Below are positions 9,439-40,457 of a DNA stretch of 64,000 nucleotides, piece after piece; position 1 is the first letter of the stretch, and each line of letters opens with the position of its first letter. The notes under the pieces were generated by a model. That model saw only the letters and a program-made list of their open reading frames with translations, had not been told where the DNA came from and made no database searches. Source of the DNA: Saprospira grandis (GTDB lineage Bacteria > Bacteroidota > Bacteroidia > Chitinophagales > Saprospiraceae); contig NZ_CP110854.1 in NCBI RefSeq assembly GCF_027594745.1, forward strand, positions 1,180,241 to 1,244,240, in the 5' to 3' direction. Made by a program: the position numbers and the translations under genes.

Positions 9439-12400
9439 TTATTTCTGCAAAATAATGCGTTCGGTCAATACTTGTTCACCGATGATGATGCGAGCGAGAT
9501 AAACGCCAGCGCTATAATCGGCTAGGTTAATTTGGTAGTTAAGGTTGCGGCCCAATTGGCTGGGGAAGCGTTGAACTTCTTGGCCATTGAGGTTATAGAT
9601 CGTCAATTGTACTTCCTCCTCCTTGGCTAGTTCAATTTGCAGCTGAGCGACATCTTGAGTAGGATTGGGGAAGAGATTCAATTGATTGAGGCCTTCAACG
9701 CCACTGATGTTAGTGGGTTGAGTGTAAGCCACTGTGATCGTTTGGCTAGTAGAGCAACCTACTTGATCGTAGACCGTCACTTCATATTGGCCAGAAACGA
9801 GGTTATTGATGCTAGCGGTAGTATCGCCAGTATTCCAAACGATGTAGTAAGGACCAACACCGCCAGATACAGAAACATCGATAGATCCGGCGAAGTCGCT
9901 GCTTTCGTTCACTACATTATCCACATTGATGGTCAAAGCGGGGTTAGCGCTAATGGTATAGCTTTCGTTGTAGGTACAGCCAGAAGCGTCGGTTACCGTT
10001 ACGCTATAAGTTTCGCCATCGAGGACGTTGCTTAGTGCGGCAGTTGTTGCGCCATTGCTCCAGTTGTAGGTATAGGGAGCGGTACCGCCTTGTACGCCTA
10101 CTTGGAGTGTACCTGCATTGCCACAATCTACGCCACTAGCCATAAAGCTAAAGTTGAGTGGGGCGGGACCATTAACGGGGTATGTTTCGTTAAACTCACA
10201 GCCATTATCGTCGGTAATAGTTACGGTATAAGTTCCAACATCTAGTCCAGTGATATCTTCAGTAGTAGCGCCGGTGGTCCAATTGAAAGAGAAAGGAGCC
10301 GTACCGCCAGCCAAAGTAATATCAACAGCACCGTTGCCATCGCGTCCGCAGTTCAGCGTACTCAACTGAGCGCTAACTGTGGGGCCAGTAAAGAAAGAGA
10401 TCTGGATAGAGTCGGTAAGTAGACAGCCATTAGCGTCAGTCATTGTGACTGCATATTGGCCCTCCATATTAGCGACAATACCGGGAGTAGTTTCTCCAGT
10501 GCTCCAGAGATAGCCTTGAGCGCCTGGGGCGGCAGCAAGGCCGATAGGGTTACTTTCACAGATGGTTGCATCGGGGCCAAGGTCTAGGTTGGCTGTTGCC
10601 ACCACAGTAGCGGTAACGGGGGTACGCGTTGTACCGCCAGCACAAGAAGTAATTTCTGCGTAGTAAGTAGTAGATACTTGGAGCGCAGGAGTAGTAAATA
10701 CGGGATCGGTAGACAAGAGCGTACCGCCAGTAGCTTGGTCGTACCAGCTAATTCCGCCAGCGGGCATAGAGGTCAAGCTAGCGCTATTTCCGACACAAGT
10801 CGTATCGCCCATGAAAGTGGGGTTAGGATTAGCGATGCTCACACAAACGTTAGCGGTATCATTGCTTGCGTTGCCATCGGCGGCAAGTTGTGTAATAATT
10901 TCGAAGCAGTAATTTCCACCACCAGTAGTATTAAAAGTACCTACAGTGAGAGTATCTTGAGCGGCAGAAGCTAGAGGACCAGCATAGGTAGCGCTAAAGG
11001 TTTGCGTACCATTGGGGCCGTTCAAGTTTACGGTTACAGGAACATTGCTAATGCTATTGCTACCATTATTAGAAAGCGTAATGACCAAAACTTCATTGGC
11101 ATTTTCGCAGGTACCTACGCTAGGTGCATCAACACCAACTGCTACGGCATCATCGGTAAAGATAGTAATTTCATCGGCTCCGATATCGGGTAGTGTAGTA
11201 CTAGCAGAGGGGCGGGTTTCGCCATCGATATCTGTAGCTACGCCTACAAGGGCGCCAGCGGCATTGAGTTGGATATTTTGAACGTGTAGGTCCGTGTAGT
11301 TGGCTACAAACTGAGGATCGATATCCAAAGAGTTAGCATCATAGCCATAGGGGCCAGAAGCCTGCCAAGTAGCCAAATCATAGGTTGTTGTCCCATAATC
11401 GATATGGTTCGTTCCGCTTGCCTTATAGAATACGTTATTATCCATAGCGGCCAAAGGCAAAGCATCGGCAGATTCAAAGGCGTAGGCAGAAGCATTATCG
11501 GCCACAAAGATATTATTGCGAATATCTAGGTCGGTGGGGTCATTCATATAGAGACCAGAAGCCAGTGTACTACCAGAACCGACTAGTGTATTGTGCCAGA
11601 TATCTACAGATTGGATATCATCCATGTAGAGGGCATCATCACTCTTAGAGAAGACCATATTGTTAATAATCTGTCCACGGCGAGTAATTGCGCCATCAAA
11701 GTTACCATCAGAGATATAGATACCATAATCTTCTGTCACCACACGGTTGTAGTTGATCGTAAAGTCCATGATATCGAAGCAATAGATTGCATCACTGAAG
11801 GTAGAGCCTACAGTTGTTTCAATCGTATTATAGTTAATCTCTAGAGAGTCTTGATCATCGATATAGATACCATAGTCATCAAAGTCCATGATTGTGTTAT
11901 TGATGATGCGGTTATACTTGTTACGAGCAGCGCTAGCGCCTTCGATATGGATTCCCATTTCTCCACCCGTGATATAGTTGTTCTCGATGAGGGTATAATT
12001 GGCGTTATTGCCTTCTGAGTAGTCATCGGTAAGGCTAGCCGAAATCACTAGAGGAATCACATCAAAAACAGAGGTTTGGAAAGTAGCGCTAATGCGGTTA
12101 TTTCTGATGCGGTTATGGTCTGCGCCATTAGTCAATTGTACCCCCCAGCCATCGCCGCCAGAAACGGCAGTAGTAGCGATACTGAAGTTTTGTACGGTTA
12201 CATAATCGGCTCCATCCAATAGTACAGTGGCATATTGGCTATTAGAAGCGTCATGAGTAAGGAAAGTAGTTGCGGTATCGCCACCATCAAAAGTGATGGT
12301 ATTGCTCATGCTAGCGCCAGAGATTTCTCCGATAAGCGCCAATTGTTGTCCGCTATAAGTACCTGCGGCCACTTGGAAAGTGACTGCACCAGCTACACCA

Positions 12401-24083: not shown

Positions 24084-25835
24084 TTGAAAAGCTACCAACT
24101 AAGTCTACTTCTCCTTAGTTTTTGGGCCATGAGCAGCAGCTTGTTGGCCCAAAAAATCGCTTTTGTAGCCGATTGCAACGCCTCTAAGGTGGTGCTAGGC
24201 AATGCCTTCAGGCTCTCTTTTCGTTTAGAAAATGCCGAAATTAAGAAGATTCGATTTCCAGATTTTGAAGCCCAGGGCTTTCAAATTGTGGAGGGGCCTG
24301 TTAATGAGAGTCGATACACCAATATTAATGGCAACCGCTATACCTTTGAGGCCTATACCTTTAGCTTGGCCCCCAATAATGAGGGCAACTATACGATTGG
24401 GGCCGCAGAAGTGACCACCTATGGCGGTAAGGTCCTGAAAACCATGCCCGTTAAGATCAAGTGCGTGGCCCCAAGTAGTAGCAATGTACAAAGCCTAAAT
24501 GACCACAACCTGCCCCCAGAATTGGCGGGGAAAGTGCTTTTTCGCCTCGAATGTGAAAATCAAGAAGCCGTGGTGGGCGAACAAATCCGACTCAATTATA
24601 AGGTCTACACCCAAATAGATATTTCTAATATTGAGCTGGTCAAGGAACCCGAATTTCCTAAAATGTATACCAGAGAATATCGCTTCTTTGACAAAGATCC
24701 TCGGGTGGAGGTCATCAATGGCCAACAATATGCCACGAAAATCATCTACTCTATGGGGGTTTTTCCAACCAAAAATGGCGAGCTGAGCATCCCCCCCGCC
24801 GAAATCCTAATTAGTGTGGGCCGACAAGATCCCCGCAATCCTTTTGCCAGCCGCAGCCTCAAACAATATCCCCTGCTCAGCCTGCCTAAAACAATTCCCG
24901 TTCGCTCGCTTTCTGGCCAAGATAAAGATTATACCGGGGCCGTGGGCGAATACGATATGGAGCTTTATCTGGAAAAAGATGAAATTACAACCGATGAAGC
25001 CCTAGAACTAGTGATGCGCATTCGAGGCCTAGGCGATATTAAACCCATCACGGCCCCGCCCGTCCATTTTAAGGAGGGCAGCTTTAAGATTTTGGAGGTC
25101 GAACAAAAAGAAGATATCCGAGAAGGGGGCCGAGGCATTGGCGGCGAAAAAACCTTTATCTATAAAATTGACCCGCAAGAAGTGGGGGATTTGAGCTTGC
25201 AGCCCAGCTTTGTCTACTTTGATGTGCGCGACCGAAAATTGATCCGCATAGACAGCAGTCTAGAGGTCAAGGTAAAACAAGGCAAACGCATCCTGAACCA
25301 AGAAGTAGCCGAAACAGCCGTAGATAGCAGCCAAGTATTGAGCATGCAAGCGGCCCTAAAATCGGCAAGTTGGCGGCCAACACCCCAGCCATTTTTTGGT
25401 ACTTACCGCTTTTATCTGCTCAGTGTATTGCCCTTTTTGGCCTTTGGCGGATTCTATTTGCTCCTTTTGGGCCGAAAGAAAAGCCTAGCGCTCAAAGAAA
25501 AACAAGCCCTAAAAAATGCCCCTTACCGACATGCGAAGGAGCAGCTTCAACTAGCCAAAACAGCCCTAAAAACAGACAATGTAGGCGATTTCTACCGGGC
25601 CATTGAAGAGGCCCTAAAAGGCTATATCGGCCTGCAAATGAATATCCCTTTAGGCGAAAGAAGCAAAGAACGCCTGCAAACACTTTTGCCCGAAAAAGAA
25701 GCGCAGGAACTAGGCGAAATCCTTGAGCATTGCGAACAAGCCCTCTTTGCTGGCCAATCGCCCCATAAAACCATGGAAGAACAACTCAAACATAGCCAAA
25801 AGCTCATTAAACAACTCGAAAAACGCCTTGCCTAA
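24084..25835 (+). CDS. batD: BatD-like (oxygen tolerance) protein
   Basis: 583 aa with signal peptide, two tandem BatD-type beta modules, a TM segment (FYLLSVLPFLAFGGFYLLLLG) and a C-terminal helical domain. Position between batC and batE. Confidence 0.7.
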   Translation: MKSYQLSLLLLSFWAMSSSLLAQKIAFVADCNASKVVLGNAFRLSFRLENAEIKKIRFPDFEAQGFQIVEGPVNESRYTNINGNRYTFEAYTFSLAPNNEGNYTIGAAEVTTYGGKVLKTMPVKIKCVAPSSSNVQSLNDHNLPPELAGKVLFRLECENQEAVVGEQIRLNYKVYTQIDISNIELVKEPEFPKMYTREYRFFDKDPRVEVINGQQYATKIIYSMGVFPTKNGELSIPPAEILISVGRQDPRNPFASRSLKQYPLLSLPKTIPVRSLSGQDKDYTGAVGEYDMELYLEKDEITTDEALELVMRIRGLGDIKPITAPPVHFKEGSFKILEVEQKEDIREGGRGIGGEKTFIYKIDPQEVGDLSLQPSFVYFDVRDRKLIRIDSSLEVKVKQGKRILNQEVAETAVDSSQVLSMQAALKSASWRPTPQPFFGTYRFYLLSVLPFLAFGGFYLLLLGRKKSLALKEKQALKNAPYRHAKEQLQLAKTALKTDNVGDFYRAIEEALKGYIGLQMNIPLGERSKERLQTLLPEKEAQELGEILEHCEQALFAGQSPHKTMEEQLKHSQKLIKQLEKRLA

Positions 25836-26599
25836 TGCTACGCCTTTTTAGCCTCATTTTGCTCCTTGCCGTAGCAGCCCCAAGCTGGGCCCAACTGCCC
25901 GACAGCTTGGCCAAACAGTTTGCTATTGGCTATGCCCATTATGAAAAAGGAGACTACGAAAAAGCCCTTTCTGCCTACCAAAAAGCAGCCTTGCCAGGCT
26001 ATTGCTCTGCCGAATTGCAAAATAATTTGGGCCTGACCTACGAAAAATTAGGACAATATGGCCCCGCCGTACTCGCCTTCGAGCGCGCCCTCTTTTGCCA
26101 ACCCCAATTTGGGCCCGCCCAAGCCAACCTTAAGGCCATTGCCAGCAAATTAAGCCGACCCAAAGCTCAAGAAAAAGCTGGCTTTATCTTCCAAACTTGG
26201 GACAATCTAGCCGCCGGCCTCGGTAGCCATTTCTGGGCCTATAGCTTCCTGTTTTTCCTCTTTTTGGCCGCCGGCAGCCTCGCCTACTACCTCTTTGTGC
26301 AACAGAAAAAAGGCAAAACTTGGCTGCTCATCCTACTTAGCCTGCTGCTGGCCTTCTTTAGTTTTATGCTCAGCCGCCGAGCCAATTATCTGCAATTTAA
26401 CCGCCAATGGGCCGTCGTCATGAGCCCAGAAGCCGCCATCCTAGACCAACCCTCTATCCAAGGCAAAGAAGTAGAGCTGGTCGGCAGCGGAAATAAAGCC
26501 CTAATTCTAGAAGAAAAAGAAGATTGGTATTATGTTCGCTTGCCCAATGCCGTACAAGGCTGGATATCGGCCAAATTACTAGAAAAAGTACGCTCCTAA
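25835..26599 (+). CDS. batE: BatE-like TPR + SH3b protein
   Basis: TPR repeat, TM segments and C-terminal SH3b-like WYYVRLPNAVQGWISAKLL. Start overlaps the batD stop. Confidence 0.7.
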   Translation: MLRLFSLILLLAVAAPSWAQLPDSLAKQFAIGYAHYEKGDYEKALSAYQKAALPGYCSAELQNNLGLTYEKLGQYGPAVLAFERALFCQPQFGPAQANLKAIASKLSRPKAQEKAGFIFQTWDNLAAGLGSHFWAYSFLFFLFLAAGSLAYYLFVQQKKGKTWLLILLSLLLAFFSFMLSRRANYLQFNRQWAVVMSPEAAILDQPSIQGKEVELVGSGNKALILEEKEDWYYVRLPNAVQGWISAKLLEKVRS

Positions 26600-26832
26600 T
26601 TTGGGGCCTCCGCAGCAAAGCTGCGGCGGTTACTCCTTTCAGTCGTCGAACTGCGCCCTAAAGGGCTTGTTGTCGTTTCGGGGCTCGCTGATTTTTTTGG
26701 GCCTCCGCAGCAAAGCTGCGGCGCTACGTTTCGGGGCTCGCTATTCGCTCGGCCCTGCGGCAGCAAAGCTGCCTGGGTCTGGCCTTCGGCCACCCCTACA
26801 CATCGCTAGGCCTGCGGCGCTCCGCGCCTGCA
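26597..26832 (+). repeat. GC-rich interspersed repeat, copy 9 (forward; hairpin module duplicated; carries optional module B)
   Basis: TTTGGGGCCTCCGCAGCAAAGCTGCGGCGGTTACTCCTTTCAGTCGTCGAACTGCGCCCTAAAGGGCTTGTTGTCGTTTCGGGGCTCGC...ACATCGCTAGGCCTGCGGCGC. The element starts at the batE stop codon. Confidence 0.85.
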
Positions 26833-26870
26833 TAACGCAAAATATAAGACCTCTTAAAATACTTATCATC

Positions 26871-27602
26871 ATGAAAAATATCTTTTCTCTAAGCCTCATG
26901 GCTGTCCTCATCCTCTTTAGCTTTAGTAGCTGCGATAGCCTACAATCTGCCCTAGATGAGGCCTCAAAACTCAATGGCGGAACCGCCGCCCTTACCCAAG
27001 CCCAAATTGGCGAAGGACTCAAGCAAGCCCTTAAGCAAGGGGCCAGCAAAGGAGCCAGCCAACTGGCCGCCCGCGACGGATTTTTTAAAAATCCTTCGGT
27101 CAAAATCCTCTTTCCCGCCGAGGCCAAACAAGTAGAAAGTCGCCTCCGTGCCCTTGGCGCTGGCAACCTAGTCGATGATGCCATCGAAAAACTAAACCGC
27201 TCGGCAGAAGATGCCTCCAAATCAGCTAAAGACATTTTTGTTAAGGCGATTACCCAAATGACCATCCAAGATGCTACGAATATCCTGATGGGCGACAAAG
27301 ATGCTTGTACCAGCTATCTCAAAAGAACCACCTCCAACCAGTTGTACCAAAGCTTTCAGCCAGTCATCAAAAGATCATTGAATAAAACAGGTGCCCTAAA
27401 CGCCTGGAACAATGTAATGACTCGCTACAATAAAATTCCACTGGTCCAAAAAGTGAACCCCGATCTAGATGATCATGTCACCAATAAAGCCATGGAAGGC
27501 CTATTCAAAATGGTCGAAAAAGAAGAGGCAAATATTCGCGCCAATCCCGTGGCCCGCGCTACCGACCTCATGAAAAAAGTCTTTGCCAAACAAGATAAGT
27601 AG
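26871..27602 (+). CDS. DUF4197-like lipoprotein
   Basis: Lipoprotein signal MKNIFSLSLMAVLILFSFSSC. LKQALKQGASKGASQLAARDGFFKNPSVKILFPAEAK pattern typical of DUF4197. The ORF-track start at 26601 is a repeat-derived extension. Confidence 0.6.
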   Translation: MKNIFSLSLMAVLILFSFSSCDSLQSALDEASKLNGGTAALTQAQIGEGLKQALKQGASKGASQLAARDGFFKNPSVKILFPAEAKQVESRLRALGAGNLVDDAIEKLNRSAEDASKSAKDIFVKAITQMTIQDATNILMGDKDACTSYLKRTTSNQLYQSFQPVIKRSLNKTGALNAWNNVMTRYNKIPLVQKVNPDLDDHVTNKAMEGLFKMVEKEEANIRANPVARATDLMKKVFAKQDK

Positions 27603-27724: not shown

Positions 27725-29626
27725 ATGTTTTATCGCACGCTTTTATACCTTTTGATCTGCTGCCTAAGCAGCCCCGCACTCTTTGCCCAAGGAGTACAGC
27801 TGGTTCCACTAGAAGAAAATTTGGCCCTCAAAAAAAGAAGCCAACTCAAAAATAATCAGGTCTGCCCCAACCTCCAACTGAGCCTCCCCTTCTTCGAGGA
27901 TTTTGCCAATAACCCCAATGGCATTTACCCCGATTGTAGCCGCTGGCAAGATAATCAAGCTTATATCAATGATCAGTTTGGCTATTTGCCCCCCAGCTTA
28001 GGAGTAGCCACTCTAGACGGTTTGGACCAAACTGGCGCTCCCTATGATGCCAATGCTAGCGTCTCTATCCCTGAAGCCGCCGATACCCTTACTTCTCAAG
28101 CTATAGACCTAGACAACCGCAACCTAAGCGACCAAATTGTCCTGAGCTACTTCTATCAGCCCCAAGGCTGGGGCGACCGGCCCGAAGAAGGCGACTCCCT
28201 GCTGCTGGAGTTTTTGGACCAAAACGGCAACTGGCAAGCCGTCCGGGCCCATGCTGGGGTGCCCAGCTCCCTCTCTACTACCGACCTCATTGACTTTGAA
28301 GAAGAATTGGTGGTCCTCGATACCCAATTCCTACATGCTAATTTTCAATTCAGATTTAGAAATTTAGCCACTATTACCGGAAGTAACGACCACTGGAACC
28401 TCGATTATATTTATCTAGATGCCAACCGCGATACCAGCCAAGCTAGCAATTATGCCGATGTGAGCTTTCGCATGCGACCAAAATCTCCTCTGGCCCCCTA
28501 TACCGCAGTGCCTTGGCGCCATTTTGATAATACCCTTTGGTCCGATTCTGTTGTGATGCAGTGCTTTAATCATAATGGCCTATCGGGTACCCTAGACCGC
28601 AGATACCAAGTTTATGATAGCGCACAAACAGGCTTTTTGTTACTCAATAGCCAAGTGCCCGCAACCACCTATGCCCCTAGCCCCAACGCAGACGATGACT
28701 ATCGAGACCTTAGCCTAAATGCTTTTTCGCCCTTTTTGCCTAGCCAAACTACAGAGCTCATCAGCCGCTATATTATTGAAAACCCTAGCGATTTTCAATC
28801 TGCAGCCCGCTATCAGGCCAATGATACCGCCTACCTAAAAACCCAACTCTCGAACTATTTTGCTTATGATGATGCCTCGGCAGAAATGCGCATTATTGTC
28901 CAAGGAATTGGAACCCAACTAGCCGTAGCTTTTCAGGCCCAAGTAGATGATACCCTCAGAGGCATCTATTTTCATTTGCCCTATTTTACCAACCGAGATG
29001 CAGAACTCGACTTTATCAATGTTAAGGTTTGGGAAGACTCTGCGGGCGTTCCTGGTCAAGAACTCTTTTCTAAGGATATTTATAAATTGCGTTATGTAGA
29101 GGGCTTTAATGGCTTTCATTATATGCCCCTCAGTGATTTTGCCGATAGCCTAACGCCTATCGCCCTGGCCGCCGGTAGCCGCTTTCATATTGGCTGGCAA
29201 CAGGCCTCTAGTACACCAGTTCCAGTAGGTTTTGACCGAAATAACAGCGATGCCGAAGCCTTTACTCATGTCAAAGTAGGAGGAAATGCTTGGCAGGATC
29301 TGGCCCTAGGCGGCGCCGTAATGATTCGGCCAGTACTTAGCCCCTCTGCTAATCCGGTGATTGTGTCTAGTACAACAACATTAGCCCCAAAAACAACATT
29401 AAACTGGAAGGTATTCCCCAACCCACTAGCAGAAGTTTTGATGATAGAAGGACTAGAAGAACGACCCCAGGCAGAGCTCCAACTCTATAATAGTTTGGGC
29501 CAGTTGGTGGCCCAAAGTCCCGCCCAAAGCCGCTGGACCCTCCCTCAACTCCCCAGCGGTATTTATTATCTTTCGGTTTGGGAAAATGGCCAATGCCTAG
29601 GCAGTAAAAAGCTATTACAACCCTAA
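27725..29626 (+). CDS. Secreted T9SS cargo protein (unknown N-terminal domains)
   Basis: Signal peptide. C-terminal WKVFPNPLAEVLMIEGLEE...LQLYNSLGQLVAQS...YYLSVWENGQ matches the Por/T9SS sorting domain pattern. Confidence 0.75.
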   Translation: MFYRTLLYLLICCLSSPALFAQGVQLVPLEENLALKKRSQLKNNQVCPNLQLSLPFFEDFANNPNGIYPDCSRWQDNQAYINDQFGYLPPSLGVATLDGLDQTGAPYDANASVSIPEAADTLTSQAIDLDNRNLSDQIVLSYFYQPQGWGDRPEEGDSLLLEFLDQNGNWQAVRAHAGVPSSLSTTDLIDFEEELVVLDTQFLHANFQFRFRNLATITGSNDHWNLDYIYLDANRDTSQASNYADVSFRMRPKSPLAPYTAVPWRHFDNTLWSDSVVMQCFNHNGLSGTLDRRYQVYDSAQTGFLLLNSQVPATTYAPSPNADDDYRDLSLNAFSPFLPSQTTELISRYIIENPSDFQSAARYQANDTAYLKTQLSNYFAYDDASAEMRIIVQGIGTQLAVAFQAQVDDTLRGIYFHLPYFTNRDAELDFINVKVWEDSAGVPGQELFSKDIYKLRYVEGFNGFHYMPLSDFADSLTPIALAAGSRFHIGWQQASSTPVPVGFDRNNSDAEAFTHVKVGGNAWQDLALGGAVMIRPVLSPSANPVIVSSTTTLAPKTTLNWKVFPNPLAEVLMIEGLEERPQAELQLYNSLGQLVAQSPAQSRWTLPQLPSGIYYLSVWENGQCLGSKKLLQP

Positions 29627-30572: not shown

Positions 30573-30586
30573 CTTTTAAGCTAGCA

Positions 30587-30630
30587 AAAGCCGCAAGCCT
30601 CATCCGCTTGCGGCTTTTTTTTTATTTTTT
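30587..30630 (+). terminator. Intrinsic terminator after bshB1
   Basis: AAAGCCGCAAGC-ctcatcc-GCTTGCGGCTTT hairpin plus T-run. Confidence 0.7.
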
Positions 30631-30734: not shown

Positions 30735-33266
30735 ATGGGAGACAGCCGCGAACGCGATTTAGTCCTCGCCCCCAACGAGTACGCCTTTATTTCTGACCAA
30801 ACCAAGGGGAATGTAATTACTTATGTAGGGCCTTATAAAACCAGTATGGCCAATACAGACAAGCCCGTTTTTTTTAATAAAAAGACGAAAGCCTTTGACA
30901 TTTGCAATTTGGATGGTTCTATTCAGACCTTTTGCACGGCCCCAGAAGGCTGGTATATTATCCTGAAAAACCCTGCAATTGATAATAAACCGCCCCAGAT
31001 TGGGACCTCCAACCAGCTTTCTTCTTTGCAGATTGGACGCAAGGTCAATTTACCTGGTCCCAACTTTTTTGCGCTTTGGCCTGGCCAAATGGCTGAAGTT
31101 TTAGAGGGCCATCATCTGCGCTCCAATGAGTATTTGCTGGTCCGTGTCTATGAAGAGGAACAAGCCCGCGCCAATTGGGATAATGCCGTAATTACGCCTC
31201 AACATACCCAGCCCGAAGGCCTAGAAGAAGAGCAACAAGCCAATGATAGCATTGATGCCAACCGCCTCAGTATGGGCCAATTGCATGTGATCAAAGGGAC
31301 CAATGTTTCTTTTTATATTCCTCCCACCGGAATTGAAGTGCTCCGAGACAAAAAAGGAAATTATGTCCGCTCTGCCGTCACTTTGGAGCGCCTAGAGTAT
31401 TGTATTCTACTCGATGAAGATGGCAATAAACGCTATATCCAAGGACCCGATGTGGTCTTTCCTCGCCCCACCGAACGCTTTATTGAGAAAAATGGCAGCC
31501 GCAAGTTTAAGGCGATAGAACTAGATGAAAATAGCGGGATTTATGTCAAAATTATTGCTCCCTATACCGAAAATGGCCAAAGTTATAAGGTGGGCGACGA
31601 GCTCTTTATTACGGGCCGAGAACAAATGATTTATTTCCCCCGCCCAGAGCAAGCCCTGATCAAATATGGGGAACAGGAAATCTATCAAGCGGTGGCCATC
31701 CCCCCCGGCGAGGGCCGCTATGTATTGAACAGAAAGAGCGGAAAAATCAGCCTGCAAAAAGGGCCCGCCATGTTTTTGGCCGACCCCAGAGAGGAGATGA
31801 TTTTGCGCCGTATCCTTAGCCCCAAACAAGTAGAGCTTTGGTTCCCCGGCAATCAAGAGGCCCTGCAATATAACCTCCAACTGCAAGAGCTCTCTAAACA
31901 ACAGCAGGCCCGCCTGCGCAAAGCCTCCAAAAAGCGGAATAAACTCAATTTACCGCCCATGGCCCAACAACAACAGGCCCTGATTGATATGGATTTCTCG
32001 GAGGAAAATGAAGAAGAAGGCGAAAGCGTCTATGAAGGCATCGTTAGCAATTCTTTTTCTAGAAGCCGACAACCCCAAAATAACAATAGCCTGGTCCTCG
32101 ATAGTAAGTATGAAGGGGCTGTTACTATTGATGCCTGGACCGGCTATGCCGTTTTGGTCACCAGCAAATTAGGCGACCGCAAAGTGGTGGTGGGCCCAAG
32201 CACTTATCTACTCGATTATGATGAGGTTCTACAGGGCATTGAGCTCTCTACAGGCACCCCAAAATCTGATGCAAAGCTAATGAGAACGGTCTATCTCCGC
32301 ATTCTCAATAATAAGGTGTCTGATTTGGTGCGGGTAGAAACTGCCGACTTCTGCGAGCTGGATATCCACCTCTCTTATCGAGTCAATTTTACGGGAGATC
32401 CCGAAAAATGGTTCAATGTGGAGAATTATGTCAAGTTCCTCACCGACCACCTCCGCTCGGTCCTCCGAAATGCCATTAAGCAGTATAATTTGGCCGATTT
32501 TTATGCCGAAGGGATTGCCGAATTGCGCAATATCGTCCTAGGTAGCCGCCCCGAAGGCGAAGAGCAGGATAGCCGCCGCCCCGGCCGCCTATTTACCGAA
32601 AATGGCATGCACATTTATGAGCTGGAGGTCCTCGATATCGAGATTCTGGATGAGGAAATCCAAGAGCTACTTTTTGCTAGCAAGCACCAAGATATTCGCA
32701 GCCAGCTAGAGCTAGACAATAAGCGAAAGGAGTTGCTCTATAGCCAAGAAGCAGAAGAAATGGCCCAGAAAATCGCCGCTAGCCGCTCTAAAACGAAGCA
32801 GTTTGCTCTCGAGCTCCAAGAGGCAGAAGAAAAACAGGCCCAAATGCTCAAGTTGGCGAGCCAAGCGGCCCGCATTGATCTAGAACGCCAAGAACTTACA
32901 GCCCAAATGGAGATGCAAGAAAAGGCTCTCAATATTGCCCGACTACAGCGCCAAGATGAGGAAGAAGCCGGCCTACTCCAACTCGAACTCAAGAAGGGAG
33001 CCCTAGAACAACGCCTCAAAGAATTGGAGGGCGAAGTGCAGGCGGTGGTCCAAAAAGCCGAGGCCGTTAGCCCCGATCTGATCGCGGCCCTACAAGCCTT
33101 TGGCGACAAAGCCCTGGCCGAAAAAATGGCCGAAAGCATGGCCCCGCTCTCTATTATCGGCGGCAAAAGTATTGTCGAGGTCTTTGGCAATCTGCTGGCC
33201 GGCAGTCCCCTCTCCTATCTGCTAGATAAAAAAGGAGAAACTCAGGATCCCGGTTTAGAGGAGTAG
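30735..33266 (+). CDS. Major vault protein (MVP) homologue: MVP repeat domains, SPFH-like shoulder, coiled-coil cap-helix
   Basis: 843 aa; eukaryotic MVP is about 860-890 aa. Recalled MVP blocks align: ours KAIELDENSGIYVKII vs MVP IPLDENEGIYVQDV; ours VVGPSTYLLDYDEVLQGIEL vs MVP VIGSTYMLTQDEVLWEKEL; ours DLVRVETADFCELDIHLSYRVNF vs MVP [23 protein letters not shown]. Repeated Pro/Tyr/Gly-punctuated units run through the N-terminal 400 aa. A roughly 150-aa coiled coil follows the shoulder, as in the MVP cap-helix. Confidence 0.8.
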   Translation: MGDSRERDLVLAPNEYAFISDQTKGNVITYVGPYKTSMANTDKPVFFNKKTKAFDICNLDGSIQTFCTAPEGWYIILKNPAIDNKPPQIGTSNQLSSLQIGRKVNLPGPNFFALWPGQMAEVLEGHHLRSNEYLLVRVYEEEQARANWDNAVITPQHTQPEGLEEEQQANDSIDANRLSMGQLHVIKGTNVSFYIPPTGIEVLRDKKGNYVRSAVTLERLEYCILLDEDGNKRYIQGPDVVFPRPTERFIEKNGSRKFKAIELDENSGIYVKIIAPYTENGQSYKVGDELFITGREQMIYFPRPEQALIKYGEQEIYQAVAIPPGEGRYVLNRKSGKISLQKGPAMFLADPREEMILRRILSPKQVELWFPGNQEALQYNLQLQELSKQQQARLRKASKKRNKLNLPPMAQQQQALIDMDFSEENEEEGESVYEGIVSNSFSRSRQPQNNNSLVLDSKYEGAVTIDAWTGYAVLVTSKLGDRKVVVGPSTYLLDYDEVLQGIELSTGTPKSDAKLMRTVYLRILNNKVSDLVRVETADFCELDIHLSYRVNFTGDPEKWFNVENYVKFLTDHLRSVLRNAIKQYNLADFYAEGIAELRNIVLGSRPEGEEQDSRRPGRLFTENGMHIYELEVLDIEILDEEIQELLFASKHQDIRSQLELDNKRKELLYSQEAEEMAQKIAASRSKTKQFALELQEAEEKQAQMLKLASQAARIDLERQELTAQMEMQEKALNIARLQRQDEEEAGLLQLELKKGALEQRLKELEGEVQAVVQKAEAVSPDLIAALQAFGDKALAEKMAESMAPLSIIGGKSIVEVFGNLLAGSPLSYLLDKKGETQDPGLEE

Positions 33267-33269
33267 GTT

Positions 33270-33480
33270 TTGGGGCCTCAGCTGCGGTTACTCCCTTTGG
33301 TCGTCGAACTGCAGACTAAAGTCCTTGTTATCGTTGCGCAGCTCGCTGCTGTTTTGGGGCCTCCCGCCTTCGGCGGGCGCTACGTTTCGCAGCTCGCAGG
33401 TCTGCTCGGCCCTGCGGCCTGACGGCCTTGGTCTGCGGCTGCGCCGCACTGCTCCACATCGCTAGGCTAGTTCTGCGGCC
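33270..33480 (+). repeat. GC-rich interspersed repeat, copy 11 (forward, with module B)
   Basis: Starts 4 bp after the MVP stop: TTTTGGGGCCTCAGCTGCGGTTACTCCCTTTGGTCGTCGAACTGCAGACTAAAGTCCTTGTTATCGTT...ACATCGCTAGGC. Confidence 0.85.
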
Positions 33481-33540: not shown

Positions 33541-33583
33541 AAAGCGCCCCGCTGCCAATGGCAGCGGGGCGCTCTTTTTGGCC
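33541..33583 (+). terminator. Intrinsic terminator (hairpin GCGCCCCGCTGCC/GGCAGCGGGGCGC)
   Basis: 13-bp perfect stem with AATG loop, followed by TCTTTTTG. Confidence 0.65.
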
Positions 33584-33596
33584 CAAAAGTCAGGCC

Positions 33597-35531
33597 TTAA
33601 TCCTTAGCTAAATGCTTGGCCAAAAAGCTTTGCATTCGTCCATAAAACTCAAAGCGGTTTTCCTCATTTCGGAAGCCATGGCCCTCGTTTTCCTTAAGGA
33701 TGTACTCTACCTCGACTCCTCTTGCCTGTAAGGCCGCCACCATTTGGTCCGATTCCGCCTGATTGACCCGAGGGTCTTTGGCCCCCTGCGCAATCAATAA
33801 GGGCGCCTTGATTTTATCCACATGAAAAACAGGAGATGTGGCCCGCATCCGAATACTGTCGGCCTCATTGCTAGGGTCGCCTACCATTTCATGTAGCATT
33901 TTGCGGTAGGGCTCCCAATAGGGCGGAATCGTCTCCATAAATGTAAAGAGGTTAGACACCCCCACATAATCTATAGCACAGGCATATTTCTCTGGACTAA
34001 ACGTAATGCCCGCCAAACTACAATAGCCCCCATAACTTCCGCCATAAATGGCCACTCGATCAGGGTCGGCAATGCCTTCCCGCACCAACCAATCTACTCC
34101 ATCACTGACATCATCTTGCATTTTGAGGCCCCACTCCTTAAAAGAAGCTTCCCAGAATTTGCGGCCATAGCCCGTACTTCCTCTAAAATTGACCTGCAAA
34201 ACGGCATAGCCTCTATTGGCCAAAAACTGCACTTCTGGGTTAAAGGTCCAGACATCTCTGGCCCAAGGCCCCCCATGTGGATTAACCACCACAGGCAAGT
34301 TTTTTGGCGCCTTGCCCTTGGGCAAGGTAAGGTAACCATGAATCTGCCAGCCATCTCGGCTGCGGTAGCTAATTGGACGCATTTCCGCCAATTGATTGGC
34401 GGGGAGCCAGGGACTCACCTCCGCTATTTTGCGCAACTCCTTTTGGTCCAAATCATAGAAATAATAGGCCCCCAAAGAACGATCGCTATAGGTGCGGACA
34501 ATAAACTTGTTTTCTTCTTCATTGGTGCTGCTCAATACAATCTCCAAATCGGGCAAAAGACTTTCTAAATGCTTATAAATGGCCGCCACCTGAGGGTCCA
34601 GAAAATGATACTCTCGCTTCCAACTAATATAGGAAATGGTGCTCAGGGCCTTGCGCTTACGGGAATAAGACATATAAGAAACATTGACCTCGGGATGCTC
34701 AAAGATGAGCTGACTCTCCTTGGCCGTTTTTAAATCAAACTTGACCACTGCCGTTTTATCTCGGCCCAAATCAGAGAGGGCGTAGATTTCCTCCTTGCCT
34801 TCAAAATCAAAGTAAAGCGGGTAGAGTGTTTCCTTAAACGAAGTATTAAGGACCAAACGGAAACTATCTTTTTCACTCTTCCGATAGAGCAAACTACTAT
34901 TTACCCCATCGGTAGCAATAGCGAGGCGGAGCCGCCCCTGATGGTCCGTTTTCCAACTCGTAATATTACCCGGGTTTTCGGCCAAGAGTTCTAGCTCTGC
35001 CGTTTGGATATTGAGGCGGTAGGGGTCAAAAACTTGGGGGTTGCGTTTATTCATCCCAATAATGAGATGTTGTTCATCGCTGCGGAGATCATCAATAATT
35101 TCTACCCGAACATTATCGAAGGGTGTGAGATCTACCTCCTTCTGGCCCCTTCGGTCTACCGAAAAGAGATGAAAGTTTTCATCTCCGCCTTGGTCCCGCA
35201 CATAGACCAAGCGATCATTATTGGCCCAAAAGAAGCCAGAAAGATCACGGTCGGTCACCTTGGTGAGGCGCAAAGGAGCTTGCTTCTGAGCGACATCTTG
35301 GACAAAGATGTTTTTGCGGTTTTCATAAGGAGCCAAATAGGCCATATACTCCCCATTTGGAGATAACTTATAGGCACTACTAGCGGGATTTCGGAAAAAG
35401 TCTTCTAAGGGAATTAAGTTCTCGTTCTTTTGCATATCAACTTCCTTTTCGGGGGCTGGATTTTTAAATAGGCAACTACTGCCAAGCAGAAGCAGCAGTA
35501 GGCTAAGTATTTTGATTGAATAGCTATTCAT
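33597..35531 (-). CDS. S9 family serine peptidase (prolyl oligopeptidase/dipeptidyl aminopeptidase-like), secreted
   Basis: N-terminal beta-propeller region. C-terminal catalytic domain with GGSYGGY nucleophile elbow, [15 protein letters not shown] and HGF. Confidence 0.85.
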
Positions 35532-35649: not shown

Positions 35650-35832
35650 CTCTTTTTTGGTCCATTTTGCGGTGGACAGGCGGCGAAGCCGCCGCAAAGG
35701 AGCGCAGCGACGCGGCTGAGGGATGGATAGCAGTGGCCCAAAGGGCCAGACCCAGCCGCCAAAGGCGGCGCAGGGCCGAGCAGACCTGCGAGCTGCGACA
35801 CAGCCCGACCCGGCCGAAGGGCGGGGCAGCCC
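35650..35832 (-). repeat. GC-rich interspersed repeat, copy 12 (reverse)
   Basis: ...GGGCCGAGCAGACCTGCGAGCTGCGACACAGCCCGACCCGGCCGAAGGGCGGGGCAGCCCCAAAATAA. Confidence 0.8.
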
Positions 35833-35868: not shown

Positions 35869-38800
35869 ATGATGATGCGTTATTTCCTATTCTTGCTCCT
35901 GCTTTGGAGTAGTGGGTCCCTTTTGGCCCAAACAGAAGATATTGAATTGGTGGTGAGCCAAGGCCACCACAGTAATGTCCGAGCCCTTGCCTTTTCGGAA
36001 GATGGGCGTTTTTTGGCCACGGCTGGCGATGACCGCAGCCTGCGCATTTGGTCGATGCGGCTACAGCAAGAATATAAGGTCCTTTGGGGACATAAGGCGG
36101 CTATTACGGATGTGGGCTTTTCTAAAGATGGGCAGTTTCTGGCCTCTGTGGGCAGTCGGCTGCTCTGTATATGGTCTATGCCTGAAGGCAAACTTTTGCA
36201 TCAGATGGAGGTAGATGCCCTGAGCAAACGCCTGCAATTTTCGGAGACTAAGGCAGGACATGTTATGGCCCGACTGCCCGAGGGCATGGCCTGGGTAGAT
36301 TTAAAAACAGGGGCCATAGACTACAGCCTAAAGCCCTTTATGCGAAATTGGAGCAACTGGATTTTGGGACAAAAAACAGCCCGTGTGATTATTCCAGAAC
36401 GGCCCGATAGCATTTGGGCCTATAGCCTCGAGGGCCAAAGAAAACAACTATTTGTAGGTAAAGGAAGCTATTATAAGCTGCTGCTTTCGCCCAATGAGGA
36501 TTATCTGGCAGCCTATTCGGGCAGCCGTCTGGCCGTAGATGTTTGGGACTATAAGAGCGGAAAATTGATTGGCAGTATTGAGGGGCTTGGCCCACTACAA
36601 GACTTTTGTTTTGATATGGCGGGGCAGCGGCTCTGGATTATGGACCTACATGCCGAATGCAGGGTCTATAGCTGCCCTAAACTCCAAATGGAGCTAATTG
36701 TCAATAAAAAGAGCTGGGGGCAAGAAGGCCTTGGCCAAGGCGATTTGGTACAGGTAAATATTGGTCAGCAGATTCGCCCCAGCCCCAATGGGCAGTTTAT
36801 GGGGCTGGCCATTACTCGCACCGAAGTGAACCGCAAGACGAGCAAGATGAATGACCTCAGAGGAGTCCAACTAGTCGATGCCCAAACGGGCAAAGAAAGG
36901 GGCCTATTTAAGGGGCATTTTAAGTGGATTACCCAGCTAGGTATCTCGCCCAAAGGCGATAAACTCCTCTCCATCAATATGGGCAAAACCCGAGGGCTGC
37001 GCTCTTGGACCATCCAAAAAGGAGAAATTGAACGCTATATCCATAGCTCCCAAAGCCTTAGCCAAAGCCAAGATAAAAAACAACTGGCCCTACTCGAGTT
37101 TCAGGAAAAAGCTCAGCCAGAACTAACGGTCTATCAGCTCCCTAGTTTTAGAAAGCTAGCCAAGAAGAAGCTCGACAATTGCAGCGCCTTTGCCCTAAGT
37201 GGCGATGGTAAAAAAATAGCGGCCCTACAAGTAGATGTTAATCTCAAAAACCCTTTAAACAACCGCTTTTATTACTCTATATGGAAGCTACCCAACTACA
37301 AACTAGAACAAGAAATTGAGATCGAATCTAAGGAATCTGCCCTACCCATATTTAAAAGTCTATTGCTTGATTCTGCTGGCGATTACCTTCTTGCTGCCGC
37401 CCAAAACCAAGCCTACAGCCTAGAGCTAAGCAGCCAAAAACGCATCCGATTTGCCCTGCCTAGCTCGGCTACTTATTGGCGAATGCTCTGCCTGCACCCA
37501 CAACAGCCCGCCCTACTCTTTGCGGTCACGGAGGTGGTCTATAATCAGGAGGAAAAAAGAGTGGAGGAGCTCAGCAAGCTGCTGCTCTACAACTATAAAA
37601 CAGGCGAACTCATCGAGGAAGTAAGCAGCCCCAAAGAGGGGGTTATCCAAAGCGCAACCTTTAGCCCAGATGGTCAATACCTACTCACGGGGCAAACGGC
37701 CTATCAGGCGGTCATCAACTTTGATGTGCTGCTCTGGGATTGGCCCCAAAAACAACTGCTCTGCCAATTTAAAGGGCATAATGGCGGCATCAATGACCTG
37801 GCCTTTGACCCCCTAGGCAAAAAGGCCTATAGCTGCTCAGAAGATGGATTGATTAAGGCCTGGGATATAGAAAAATGTGCCCTAGACGCTTCTTTTATTG
37901 GCTATAATGAATTGGATTACCTCATTATCTCGCCCGAAAATTACTATAAAACTAGCCGAAGCAATACCGCTGGCCTTGGCTTTCGATATGCCGGCGACCT
38001 CTATACCTACGATCAGTTTGACCTCCGATTTAACCGCCCAGATAAGGTCCTCGCCCCCTTTAGCGATGCCCCTCGCAAACTAAATATCTATACCAAGGCC
38101 TGGAAAAAAAGAGTGCGGCGACTCGGCTTTACCGAGGAACAACTAGAGCAAGAGCTAGACCTGCCCCAACTTCAAATTGTCAATCAATTGCAGCTCCCCA
38201 TTTTTGTAGAAGATAGCCTCATCCATTTCCAAATTACCGCCTTTGACCAGCAACAGGCCCTAAAAAAACTGCGCATCTTTGTCAATGGCGTGCCCTACCC
38301 CAATGCAGAAGGCATCGAGCTAAACAACAGCCCTGGCGATAGCCTGCGCCAAGAACTAAGTATTCCACTAGGCCAAGGCCCCAATAAAATTCAACTCTCG
38401 GTGGTCAATGCCGCAGGCCTAGAAAGTGCCAAACAGAGCTTTCAACTGGCCTACCAACCCAAAGAGAAACAAACTAGTCAACTCTACTTTTTGGGCCTTG
38501 GAGTCAGTGAGTTTAAAGATAGTAGCCGCAACCTAAAGTACCCCCAAAAAGATGCCCATGACCTGGCCCAAACCTTAGCCGAAGCCCAAGAAAAAGGACA
38601 GTTCCAGCAACTTTTGCTCGACCCTAATATGCCCATAGAACAACTGCAAAAAAGCGCTAGAGACTTTATGGAGCAGGCCAAAATCAATGACCAAATTGTC
38701 TTTTATATCTCTTCGCATGGCCTGCTAGACGATAGCCTGAACTACTACCTAGCCCTCCCCAATAGCCAATTTGATCAGCCCCAAAATGGAAGCTGGGCCT

Positions 38801-39303
38801 ATGATAATATAGAGCAATTACTGGATGGGCTACCCTGCCGCAACCGCCTGCTCCTGCTCGATGCCTGCCATTCTGGGGAAGTGGATAAGGAGGTAGAAAC
38901 CGAGAAGAAATCGGTCAGCAGCTTTGCCCAAAACATACTCAAAAGAAGCAAGTCGGGCAGTACCCTGATCCGCCCCAAAACGGGACTCAACAACTCTTTT
39001 GCCTATATGAAGGCCCTTTTTTCGGACCTAGAACAGCAGAGCGGGGTCACGGTTATTTCTGCCGCTGGCGGCTTCGAACTGGCCTATGAATCGGATGAAT
39101 GGGGCAACGGCCTCTTTACCTACGCCCTTTTGGAGGGCATCAAAAGCAAGAAAGCCGACCTCAATAATGATGGCCAAATTCCTATCCTCGAGCTGCGAGA
39201 CTTCCTCAGCCTCAGGGTGCTAGAGCTCAGTCAGGGCCAACAGCAGCCCACCGCCCGCCAATCCAATGTTTTCAATAACTTTATCCTTTACCGTTATGAT
39301 TAG
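35869..39303 (+). CDS. Secreted WD40-repeat protein with C-terminal caspase-like (peptidase C14) domain
   Basis: Signal peptide MMMRYFLFLLLLWSSGSLLAQ. WD40 units (e.g. GHHSNVRALAFSEDGRFLATAGDDRSLRIWS; GHKAAITDVGFSKDGQFLASVGSRLLCIWS; GHNGGINDLAFDPLGKKAYSCSEDGLIKAWD). The C-terminus carries the caspase His/Cys dyad context YISSHGLLDD ... LLLLDACHSGE. Confidence 0.8.
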   Translation: MMMRYFLFLLLLWSSGSLLAQTEDIELVVSQGHHSNVRALAFSEDGRFLATAGDDRSLRIWSMRLQQEYKVLWGHKAAITDVGFSKDGQFLASVGSRLLCIWSMPEGKLLHQMEVDALSKRLQFSETKAGHVMARLPEGMAWVDLKTGAIDYSLKPFMRNWSNWILGQKTARVIIPERPDSIWAYSLEGQRKQLFVGKGSYYKLLLSPNEDYLAAYSGSRLAVDVWDYKSGKLIGSIEGLGPLQDFCFDMAGQRLWIMDLHAECRVYSCPKLQMELIVNKKSWGQEGLGQGDLVQVNIGQQIRPSPNGQFMGLAITRTEVNRKTSKMNDLRGVQLVDAQTGKERGLFKGHFKWITQLGISPKGDKLLSINMGKTRGLRSWTIQKGEIERYIHSSQSLSQSQDKKQLALLEFQEKAQPELTVYQLPSFRKLAKKKLDNCSAFALSGDGKKIAALQVDVNLKNPLNNRFYYSIWKLPNYKLEQEIEIESKESALPIFKSLLLDSAGDYLLAAAQNQAYSLELSSQKRIRFALPSSATYWRMLCLHPQQPALLFAVTEVVYNQEEKRVEELSKLLLYNYKTGELIEEVSSPKEGVIQSATFSPDGQYLLTGQTAYQAVINFDVLLWDWPQKQLLCQFKGHNGGINDLAFDPLGKKAYSCSEDGLIKAWDIEKCALDASFIGYNELDYLIISPENYYKTSRSNTAGLGFRYAGDLYTYDQFDLRFNRPDKVLAPFSDAPRKLNIYTKAWKKRVRRLGFTEEQLEQELDLPQLQIVNQLQLPIFVEDSLIHFQITAFDQQQALKKLRIFVNGVPYPNAEGIELNNSPGDSLRQELSIPLGQGPNKIQLSVVNAAGLESAKQSFQLAYQPKEKQTSQLYFLGLGVSEFKDSSRNLKYPQKDAHDLAQTLAEAQEKGQFQQLLLDPNMPIEQLQKSARDFMEQAKINDQIVFYISSHGLLDDSLNYYLALPNSQFDQPQNGSWAYDNIEQLLDGLPCRNRLLLLDACHSGEVDKEVETEKKSVSSFAQNILKRSKSGSTLIRPKTGLNNSFAYMKALFSDLEQQSGVTVISAAGGFELAYESDEWGNGLFTYALLEGIKSKKADLNNDGQIPILELRDFLSLRVLELSQGQQQPTARQSNVFNNFILYRYD

Positions 39304-39304
39304 T

Positions 39305-39433
39305 TTCTTTTCTTTTGGGGCCTCCGCCTCCCTTCGGTCGTCGGCGCTACGTTCCGGGGCTCGCAAGTCTGCTCGGCCCTTCGGCGGCTTGGCCGCCTCG
39401 GTCTGCGGCTGCGCCGCCCCCCTCCACATCGCT
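39305..39433 (+). repeat. GC-rich interspersed repeat, copy 13 (forward)
   Basis: Starts 2 bp after the stop: TTTTGGGGCCTCCGCCTCCCTTCGGTCGTCGGCGCTACGTTCCGGGGCTCGCAAGTCTGCTCGGCCCTTCGGCGG...ACATCGCTAGGCC. Confidence 0.85.
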
Positions 39434-39481
39434 AGGCCAAAACCAAAAACTGCCCTAGGGGCAGCCAAAGAGGGCCTTTCG

Positions 39482-40457
39482 GCCCTCCCACTAAATGCGC
39501 CTAATAGGGCCCAACAGGCTGGCAGGTCGCCCCTTATTTTGGGCCTTTTACTGCTGTTGTTCTTGGGCCTAGTTCCCGCCTGCCAGCCTGCTCAATCAGC
39601 AGAGGCAGAACCCGCCCCCCTCCTAGCAGATAGTAGCCAAACAGACAGTTTGCCCCCAAGCCAACTCCCCCCCGCTATTCGCCAAGGGCCACAGCCTCGG
39701 CTAGCCCAGTTTAGCGACAGTCTGACGACCCTAAGTATTGGGGGGCATAAGGTGGATATACAACTCCCTAGGGCCGCCTTTAAGGGCAGTATCATTATTT
39801 TGCCTGGCTATAATTTCCCGAAGGAGGATGCCTGCCAGAAAGCTCCCCTCTTTTGCCAGACCTTTTTGGAGGCGGGTTATCTACTCATTATGCCTGAAAT
39901 GGGACGCTCCTTATATAGTAGTCAGTATTTTCCAGAAACCCAGGCTCGTTACAAGCGCTATCCCGACCAAAACTGGGTCCTAGATAGTCTGCTCCCTCAT
40001 TTGCAGCTAGAATATGGGCTATTAGTAGATGGGCAAGACAATTTCTTAGTGGGCATTTCTACTGGGGGCCGAGGGGCTGCTCTTTTGGCCTTGGCTGCGC
40101 CCGAGCGTTGGACCGCAGTGGCCAGCCTGTCTGGAGACTTTGACCAAAGCCAGATACCCAATGATGGACTGATGCGCAACTTTTATGGACCTTACAAACA
40201 ATTTAGTCAGCGCTGGAAAATGGTGGATAATGTTATTGCTCGCATAGACGACTGGCAAACGCCTATCTTTATTGGGCATGGCGGAGCCGATAAGGTGGTC
40301 CCCCCCCGCCCAGTCTAAACAACTCTTTGATAGCTTACAAAGTCGTTTAGATCAGGAGCTACTCTATTACTCTGCGCCCCCCAAGGCCGAGCACAACTAT
40401 GCTTATTGGGAAGCTGAGGCCAAAAATATACTGGCCTTTTTTCAGTCATTGCCTTAG
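39482..40457 (+). pseudogene. Alpha/beta-hydrolase (putative esterase family) lipoprotein gene with a +1 frameshift in a C8 tract and no ATG start
   Basis: Lipobox-type signal LLLLLFLGLVPAC. IIILPGYNFPKED, nucleophile-elbow context VGISTGGRGAALLAL and IFIGHGGADKVVP. The reading frame stops at 40318 just after CCCCCCCC (40300-40307). The C-terminal continuation AQSKQLFDSLQSRLDQELLYYSAPPKAEHNYAYWEAEAKNILAFF is in the +1 frame (ORF 40272..40457). No in-frame ATG lies between the upstream repeat and the signal peptide. Confidence 0.6.

Follow-up and report, generated by a model that had tools for sequence, protein, structure and literature searches.

A WD40-repeat protein of Saprospira grandis with a signal peptide and a C-terminal caspase domain: a probable extracytoplasmic protease encoded close to a major vault protein gene

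A 64-kb stretch of DNA from Saprospira grandis (contig NZ_CP110854.1; hereafter the window) carries a gene for a 1144-residue protein in which a signal peptide, a long WD40-repeat region and a C-terminal caspase domain of peptidase family C14 are combined, and which is encoded close to a bacterial homologue of the major vault protein (MVP). We consider it probable that this protein, referred to below as the target, is an extracytoplasmic, self-processing C14 protease specific for Arg or Lys, whose propellers recruit its substrates, and that it works alone and has no role connected with MVP; our confidence is lower for the compartment, the specificity and the autoprocessing, each taken as a separate step. 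As judged from sequence, the target is an ordinary, apparently functional member of the WD40-fused prokaryotic caspase homologues, belonging to a large sub-family, and the short distance of 2.6 kb to the MVP gene appears to be without functional meaning.

Domain architecture, active site and export signal

The target is a real gene and not a chance open reading frame (ORF), because full-length orthologues were found at 92% identity in Saprospira grandis DSM 2844 (the best database match, named 'WD40 repeat-containing protein') and at 79% identity in a metagenome. Both of the regions recognised by Pfam scored well above threshold: PF00400 (WD40), whose cut-off is 27, reached 111.9 bits, and three repeats also passed individually; PF00656 (Peptidase_C14), with a gathering score of 21.4, matched residues 877-1138 at 52.4 bits. 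Many generic beta-propeller families also matched the protein, and the region between propellers and protease (residues ~690-880) matched no Pfam family.

The layout of the protein (Table 1) was the same in two AlphaFold models, one of the full-length protein (15 family members in the alignment; mean predicted local distance difference test score, pLDDT, 78.6; predicted template modelling score, pTM, 0.70) and a separate one of residues 690-1144 (pLDDT 76.3). Canonical WD40 sequence is found only in the outer repeats (residues ~29-130 and ~617-690), the central blades being degenerate, and Foldseek matched the propeller region to the tandem 7+7-bladed WD40 proteins 2ymu, 1nr0 (Aip1) and 4nsx (Utp21). 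The propellers are followed by a linker module which the models fold as helices (residues 714-759, bearing an NRPD motif at 722-725) and then as a beta-sandwich (767-862). This module is conserved at 29-36% identity among family members, its NRPD motif is near-invariant (at least 146 of 149 family representatives), and it is present also in shorter members of the family that are without WD40 repeats.

To the caspase domain, Foldseek searches with the model of residues 690-1144 returned MALT1, Geobacter GSU0716, metacaspases of plants, yeast and trypanosomes, and caspases, at E values of 1e-9 to 1e-5; MALT1 was the best of these (E 1e-9; TM 0.72 to the isolated caspase domain of 3v4o). A single-sequence search of PDB sequences with the same residues gave nothing meaningful, and a family profile was needed to reveal the similarity to solved C14 structures, which stands at E ~1e-4, with ~13-17% identity in structural alignments. 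The profile, made from an alignment of the linker and caspase module, matched GSU0716 and Arabidopsis metacaspase-4 (AtMC4) among the PDB sequences, the HG of the family aligning with SGHG of AtMC4 and the DxCHSG of the family with DSCHSG. In the target these motifs are SHG (residues 949-951, within SSHG) and DACHSGE (998-1004). The Cys1000 column is that of the catalytic Cys, because the Cys-to-Ala mutant structure 6w8r has Ala in the same column. His950, Cys1000, Asp895, Asp998, Gly1003 and Glu1004 were each invariant in all 149 family representatives. The dyad is intact and, as far as the alignments tell, under strong constraint. The preliminary description of this gene, made from the letters alone, had likewise reported a signal peptide, WD40 repeats and a C14 domain with an intact dyad; all three are borne out, by the features of the N-terminus, by PF00400, and by PF00656 together with the alignment to AtMC4. 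It had named a substituted dyad as a sign against its own proposal of a link with MVP; no such substitution was found, and that link fails on other evidence, given below.

The alignment also bears on specificity. Asp895 aligns with the Asp of 'VND' in AtMC4 and Asp998 stands two residues before the catalytic Cys, and the two are the counterparts of the acidic specificity residues of the Trypanosoma brucei metacaspase (Asp95 and Asp211 of MCA2), which hold basic P1 side chains (PMC6426788). Orthocaspases, too, cut after positively charged (basic) residues (PMC6426788). Since Asp895 and Asp998 are conserved as in metacaspases and orthocaspases, cleavage after Arg or Lys is most likely, and this P1 specificity is the best that can be predicted for the target from its sequence.

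Directly after the catalytic Cys, residues 1002-1056 are disordered in both models and contain nine Lys or Arg in 55 residues. Zymogens of the caspase family are cut between their large and small halves, at a position matching this loop, and a long disordered linker after the catalytic Cys is a feature of the type II metacaspases that the target has as well. The loop is therefore likely, on the strength of the models, to be the linker at which the predicted autoprocessing would take place.

The first residues of the protein, MMMRYFLFLLLLWSSGSLLA/QTED, look like a substrate of signal peptidase I, with a single basic residue, a hydrophobic core whose mean Kyte-Doolittle hydropathy is 2.2, and Ala-Gln where cleavage would be expected; residues 2-18 form an isolated hydrophobic helix in the full-length model. 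A hydrophobic N-terminal window was present in 112 of the 149 family representatives, as against one of 120 MVP homologues; those family members without it that were inspected are short or begin inside the protein, which suggests that they are fragments. A small residue (Ala, Ser or Gly) followed by Gln at residues 13-34 was found in 106 of 125 full-length representatives versus two of 120 MVPs, and this junction follows the Q-rule known from exported proteins of Bacteroidetes (PMC5837995, PMC10653852). The target signal holds no lipobox Cys. No C-terminal sorting domain of the type IX secretion system (T9SS; Por_Secre_tail or CHU_C) was matched in the target, and there is no room for one, because the C14 match reaches residue 1138 of 1144. 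These features point to a protein that is most probably periplasmic.

Put together, the features suggest the following sequence of events. The protein would be exported by the Sec pathway, and signal peptidase I would cut it after Ala20, so that the mature chain starts with Gln21. The two WD40 propellers of seven blades each (residues ~26-700) would serve as a protein-binding platform, which may select and present substrates or may bind a regulatory ligand, and the helical and beta-sandwich module with its NRPD motif (~703-865) would join them to the protease. Cleavage by the C-terminal caspase domain would use His950 and Cys1000 and would most likely fall after Arg or Lys, and activation of the domain would probably come about by self-cleavage within the disordered loop.

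Several points weigh against this proposal. The structure models rest on shallow alignments (13-15 sequences; pLDDT 76-79), the signal peptides were called by simple heuristics and not by a trained predictor, the protein may sit at the cell surface or be secreted rather than stay in the periplasm, and the P1 specificity is drawn from just two aligned Asp residues. Gene neighbourhoods are heterogeneous across the family and uninformative on the substrate, experimental characterisation of any family member was not found in the literature searched, and Saprospira and probably Aureispira genomes carry both MVP and target-family genes.

Family members, known relatives and other possible functions

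At E<=1e-3, an exhaustive search with the 455-residue linker and caspase module returned 22,379 cluster representatives, of which 3301 were left at E<=1e-30. In the top 150 representatives the whole 455-residue module was found at the C-terminal end, and the median length was 1120 residues; some members of the family are shorter and have a small WD40 region or none. The relatives are named 'caspase family protein' (NCBI) or 'WD40 repeat protein/uncharacterized caspase-like protein', and the family is found mostly in Bacteroidota, named relatives coming from Flavobacteriales, Cyclobacteriaceae, Marinilabiliales, Bacteroidales, Chitinophaga, Saprospiraceae, Aureispira, Reichenbachiella, Nitrospirota and a gammaproteobacterial metagenome-assembled genome (MAG). 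A homologue search with the C-terminal module yielded mostly gene fragments on short contigs, including the closest (~48% identity) orthologues. In the JGI metagenome contigs L083 (836-23273) and L084, four full-length WD40-linker-caspase paralogues stand in tandem, with a fifth on the opposite strand, beside recA and uvrB, and in another locus (L090) several WD40, C14, CHAT and kinase genes are found together. Tandem arrays of four or five paralogues in some genomes suggest a lineage-specific expansion of the family.

WD40 was the commonest fusion partner of bacterial metacaspases in the 2012 survey of Asplund-Samuelsson et al., at 10.9% of sequences, and N-terminal hydrophobic helices, probably signal peptides, were frequent in that survey (PMC3501461); S. 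grandis is absent from its supplement. The target resembles the WD40-fused prokaryotic metacaspases and orthocaspases in that its WD40 repeats are joined to a C14 domain in which the His-Cys dyad and an acidic pocket are present. The better known caspase-NACHT-WD40 type is cytoplasmic, whereas the target has a signal peptide, two propellers, the NRPD/beta-sandwich module, a caspase domain at the C-terminus and no NTPase. AtMC4, T. brucei metacaspase-2 and GSU0716 resemble it in fold, in the HG and DxCHSG motifs and in the two acidic pocket residues, but have neither propellers nor an export signal. MALT1, like the target, pairs a caspase domain with an Ig-like beta-sandwich; its Ig domain, however, comes after the caspase domain, whereas in the target the sandwich comes before it, and MALT1 is a eukaryotic cytoplasmic signalling protein whose similarity is at the level of the fold only (~15% identity in structural alignment). 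MALT1 is Arg-specific. Gingipains, which are exported caspase-fold cysteine proteases of Bacteroidota, specific for Arg or Lys and made as zymogens, offer a functional analogy only: they belong to family C25 and have a T9SS C-terminal domain, haemagglutinin/adhesin domains and no WD40, and no sequence or profile match to them turned up here, where no dedicated test was run.

Other functions are conceivable for a protein of this kind. S. grandis preys on other bacteria, and one possible explanation is that the target is a secreted digestive or predation protease which works together with the neighbouring S9 peptidase and esterase. The three adjacent genes all encode exported hydrolases, the S9/target/esterase trio is kept with the 79% orthologue, and T9SS-secreted proteases and adhesins are plentiful in the window. 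We nevertheless find this explanation unlikely, as the target lacks a T9SS C-terminal domain, so that its release from the cell is not expected; the trio is not kept in more distant family members, dispersed repeats separate the three genes, and large propeller platforms would fit selective proteolysis better than bulk proteolysis.

An intracellular effector that is similar to Apaf-1 or belongs to a defence system, in which the WD40 repeats sense an invader or a stress and the caspase kills the cell, is improbable for different reasons. The signal peptide is conserved across the family, so that the protease would act outside the cytoplasm, and neither an NTPase nor an adaptor domain is present in the protein. 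It is true that bacteria commonly have WD40-caspase and NACHT-WD40-caspase proteins, which are discussed as cell-death or conflict systems (PMC3501461); the propellers of the target resemble those of Apaf-1, and genes of the family are sometimes found in paralogue arrays with CHAT, kinase and toxin-antitoxin genes. The best NCBIfam match is to EACC1-associated caspases (NF047832), but at 78.2 bits it lies below the cut-off of 140 and covers the p20 part only. PADLOC gave only weak partial matches, one to a caspase model at 26.6 bits and one to HEAT-ARM_XIII at 32.5 bits over ~100 residues, and no conserved partner gene stands beside the family members. The preliminary description had put forward both regulated proteolysis and a cell-death effector; the former is a reasonable suggestion, whereas the latter is less likely in view of the export signal and the lack of an NTPase or defence signature.

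It is very improbable that the target is a catalytically dead scaffold (a pseudo-protease) that serves in protein binding only: pseudo-orthocaspases do exist in bacteria (PMC6426788), and the central WD40 blades are degenerate, but the invariance of the dyad, the two pocket Asp residues, Gly1003 and Glu1004 is the pattern expected under selection for catalysis.

Relation to the major vault protein gene

That the target is a TEP1-like minor component of a bacterial vault, or a factor in its processing or assembly, as the preliminary description had proposed, can hardly be upheld, as the co-occurrence fails from both the MVP side and the family side. The proposal had its starting points in the proximity of a true MVP homologue, an arrangement which is kept in S. 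grandis DSM 2844, in WD40 repeats like those of TEP1, to which a weak match to a TEP1 propeller model may be added, and in the Saprospira and probable Aureispira genomes with both types of gene mentioned above. The observation that a single gene, for an S9 peptidase on the opposite strand, separates the target from MVP was found to be correct; the target starts 2603 bp after the stop of MVP.

Ten MVPs were aligned, and with this alignment 245 MVP-encoding stretches were located in one-genome-per-species collections. The best 80 of these (80 species) were taken together with flanks of at most 10 kb per side, 1.08 Mb of flank in all; in 63 of the loci, the flank on one side or on both reaches 6 kb or more. 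Co-occurrence with MVP was thus assessed at the level of the neighbourhood, within 10 kb. These loci span Saprospiraceae, Cytophagales, Microscillaceae, Riflebacteria, Sericytochromatia, Myxococcota and Planctomycetota. When the target and four segments of it were used in tblastn searches, a match was obtained in only one of the 80 loci (L001), that of S. grandis DSM 2844, which is of the same species and fully syntenic; the S9 peptidase, PIG-L, T9SS protein and esterase genes of the window likewise matched that locus alone. Hidden Markov models of the family caspase and linker regions, and phmmer with the canonical WD40 segments, added to it one unrelated caspase (in L031). The other 79 of the 80 MVP loci were, over up to 10 kb, without the target gene, the linker module or a canonical WD40 protein.

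The caspase-domain gene in L031 (a Bernardetiaceae MAG; 9994-12819, + strand), which is cut by the end of the locus, is the only other one within 10 kb of an MVP. Its product has an N-terminal caspase domain, no signal peptide and no WD40 repeats, followed by a long unrelated region with an alpha/beta-hydrolase-like end, and stands outside the family of the target.

The MVP/target arrangement is not conserved even within Saprospiraceae, since other Saprospira and Aureispira MAGs (L003-L008), in which MVP is 65-69% identical, are without the target gene and without the S9 peptidase. As seen from the family side, none of nine family loci has an MVP within 10 kb; the loci without one are that of Reichenbachiella (L082) and P0003, L083/84, L085, L086/87, L088, L089 and L090. 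The locus of the 79% orthologue (L081) ends inside the S9 gene and is the one locus uninformative on MVP. Taxa of the family such as Flavobacteriales, Chitinophaga and Nitrospirota are missing from the listed MVP loci. Clustering of all ORFs of the 80 loci revealed no conserved neighbour of MVP of any kind; the clusters consisted of shadow ORFs of MVP and of generic families (histidine kinases, ABC transporters, subtilases) at scattered positions. The adjacency of target and MVP, seen only in S. grandis, is most simply explained by chance. An earlier preprint on bacterial MVP homologues, in which the S. grandis protein was used, reports no partners (bioRxiv 10.1101/872010).

The comparison with TEP1 itself leads in the same direction. 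TEP1 is composed of TROVE, vWA, TIR-like DUF4062, NACHT and WD40 regions and lies inside the cytoplasmic vault (bioRxiv 10.64898/2026.05.01.722283). Pfam searches with the whole target or its segments gave no match to TROVE, vWA, DUF4062 or NACHT. The TEP1 propeller model PF25047 (Beta-prop_TEP1_2nd) scored 63.1 bits, below its cut-off of 89, and was outscored by nine WD40/propeller models. The two proteins are alike in being large and having WD40 propellers, and in that both genomes encode an MVP; TEP1, however, is without a caspase domain, whereas the target has a caspase domain, an export signal and no link to MVP across genomes. By the signal-peptide heuristic, the S. grandis MVP and 119 of 120 MVP homologues have no signal peptide, and since the target has one, the two proteins are expected in different compartments. 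Dispersed repeats, a strong terminator-like hairpin and a convergent gene also lie between the target and MVP genes, and no vault or Y RNA was found in an Rfam scan of the window.

Gene neighbourhood and implications

The coordinates of the target, its parts and its closest neighbours are collected in Table 1.

Table 1. Positions within the window of the target gene, its predicted parts and the adjacent genes
Feature	Position	Strand	Basis and remarks
Complete gene, 1144-residue exported WD40-caspase protein	35869..39303	+	ORF list, translation; ATG start, stop TAG at 39301-39303
Predicted signal peptide (Sec/SPI, signal peptidase I type), residues 1-20, MMMRYFLFLLLLWSSGSLLA	35869..35928	+	Hydrophobic window, Ala-Gln junction; predicted mature N-terminus Gln21
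Tandem WD40 beta-propellers, residues ~26-700, ~57 strands, ~14 blades	35944..37968	+	Pfam, AlphaFold model, Foldseek
Family-specific linker module, residues ~703-865	37975..38463	+	Conservation, secondary structure of models; outside any Pfam family
Caspase-fold domain (Peptidase C14, clan CD), residues ~872-1142	38482..39294	+	PF00656, profile matches, Foldseek
Catalytic His950, codon CAT, SSHG motif	38716..38718	+	Alignment to AtMC4; codon checked
Catalytic Cys1000, codon TGC, DACHSGE	38866..38868	+	Alignment to AtMC4; codon checked
Candidate acidic S1-pocket residues Asp895 and Asp998	38551-38553 (Asp895); 38860-38862 (Asp998)	+	Alignment, conservation
Disordered Lys/Arg-containing loop, residues 1002-1056, between p20-like and p10-like halves	38872..39036	+	pLDDT <50 in both models
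Bacterial MVP homologue	30735..33266	+	MVP_shoulder 109 bits; separate transcription unit
S9 (Dpp5-like) serine peptidase, lipoprotein-like signal	33597..35531	-	PF00326 167 bits
Esterase/polyhydroxybutyrate (PHB)-depolymerase-like gene, downstream, co-directional	39266..40318	+	Pfam Esterase; kept downstream of the 79% orthologue

The MVP homologue is highly conserved: it has thousands of bacterial homologues at 55-70% identity, in Bacteroidota, Riflebacteria, Sericytochromatia, Myxococcota and Planctomycetota, many of them named 'major vault protein' by their source. Terminator-like hairpins were found before it (30586-30618) and between it and the convergent S9 gene (33543-33573, with a 14-bp stem), and as judged from these MVP looks like a solitary gene here. 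The S9 gene, convergent with MVP, is divergent from the target, and its orthologue (92.6% identity) keeps its place beside the 79% target orthologue.

On the other side of the target, the called start of the esterase gene overlaps the target stop codon, and the first ~60-90 codons that follow from this call (GASASLRSSALRSGARK...) are a GC-rich repeat in translation; the gene probably begins further on, close to the lipoprotein-like signal LLLLFLGLVPAC. In the contig of the 79% orthologue, too, a gene caller had set the start so that it overlaps. An operon of target and esterase was considered and was downgraded to 'possibly co-transcribed', as a repeat element lies between the target stop and the likely esterase start.

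Copies of this dispersed GC-rich repeat lie at 33332-33467 (+), 35747-35801 (-) and 39326-39437 (+), one in each gap around the S9 and target genes. With up to three mismatches allowed, 14 occurrences of its 25-nt core, GCTCGCAGGTCTGCTCGGCCCTGCG, were counted in the window, where none would be expected by chance, and 12 of the 14 lie between ORFs; the core was also seen at 89, 5116, 8454, 15300, 16944, 19243, 29745, 42468, 49800, 55216 and 60283. It looks like an element of the repetitive extragenic palindromic (REP) or miniature inverted-repeat transposable element (MITE) type.

The region is rich in genes for exported and surface proteins. Three T9SS cargo proteins with Por_Secre_tail are encoded in the window, at 313-5016 (+), 9439-15096 (-) and 27725-29626 (+); they are a 1567-residue S8 subtilase with PKD domains, a 1885-residue beta-helix/SprB-repeat protein and a 633-residue protein. 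Upstream, at 24084-27602 (+), the three ORFs scanned encode BatD-like, TPR/SH3 and DUF4197 proteins, and are probably the end of a Bat (aerotolerance-type) cluster that starts at ~17.2 kb.

A vault link, had it been true, would have given a starting point for finding out what the bacterial MVP homologues do and where the minor vault proteins came from. The lack of a conserved neighbour of MVP in 80 loci is itself a useful negative result for searches for bacterial vault partners.

An additional, more tentative scenario, to which we give a low probability, is that the exported architecture marks a distinct and unstudied extracytoplasmic branch of the bacterial caspase homologues, in which the propellers act as periplasmic sensors that trigger the fused protease. 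If this were true, envelope damage, foreign proteins or components of prey or phage might be among the items sensed, and the protein would be a sensor-protease in one chain, free of an NTPase and acting outside the cytoplasm; the tandem arrays of paralogues would then represent diversified recognition, and MVP would play no part. Regarded simply as a probable extracytoplasmic protease, the target belongs to a large family of exported caspase-fold proteins with a strictly conserved active site, which would make a reasonable target for enzymology, though not a surprising one.

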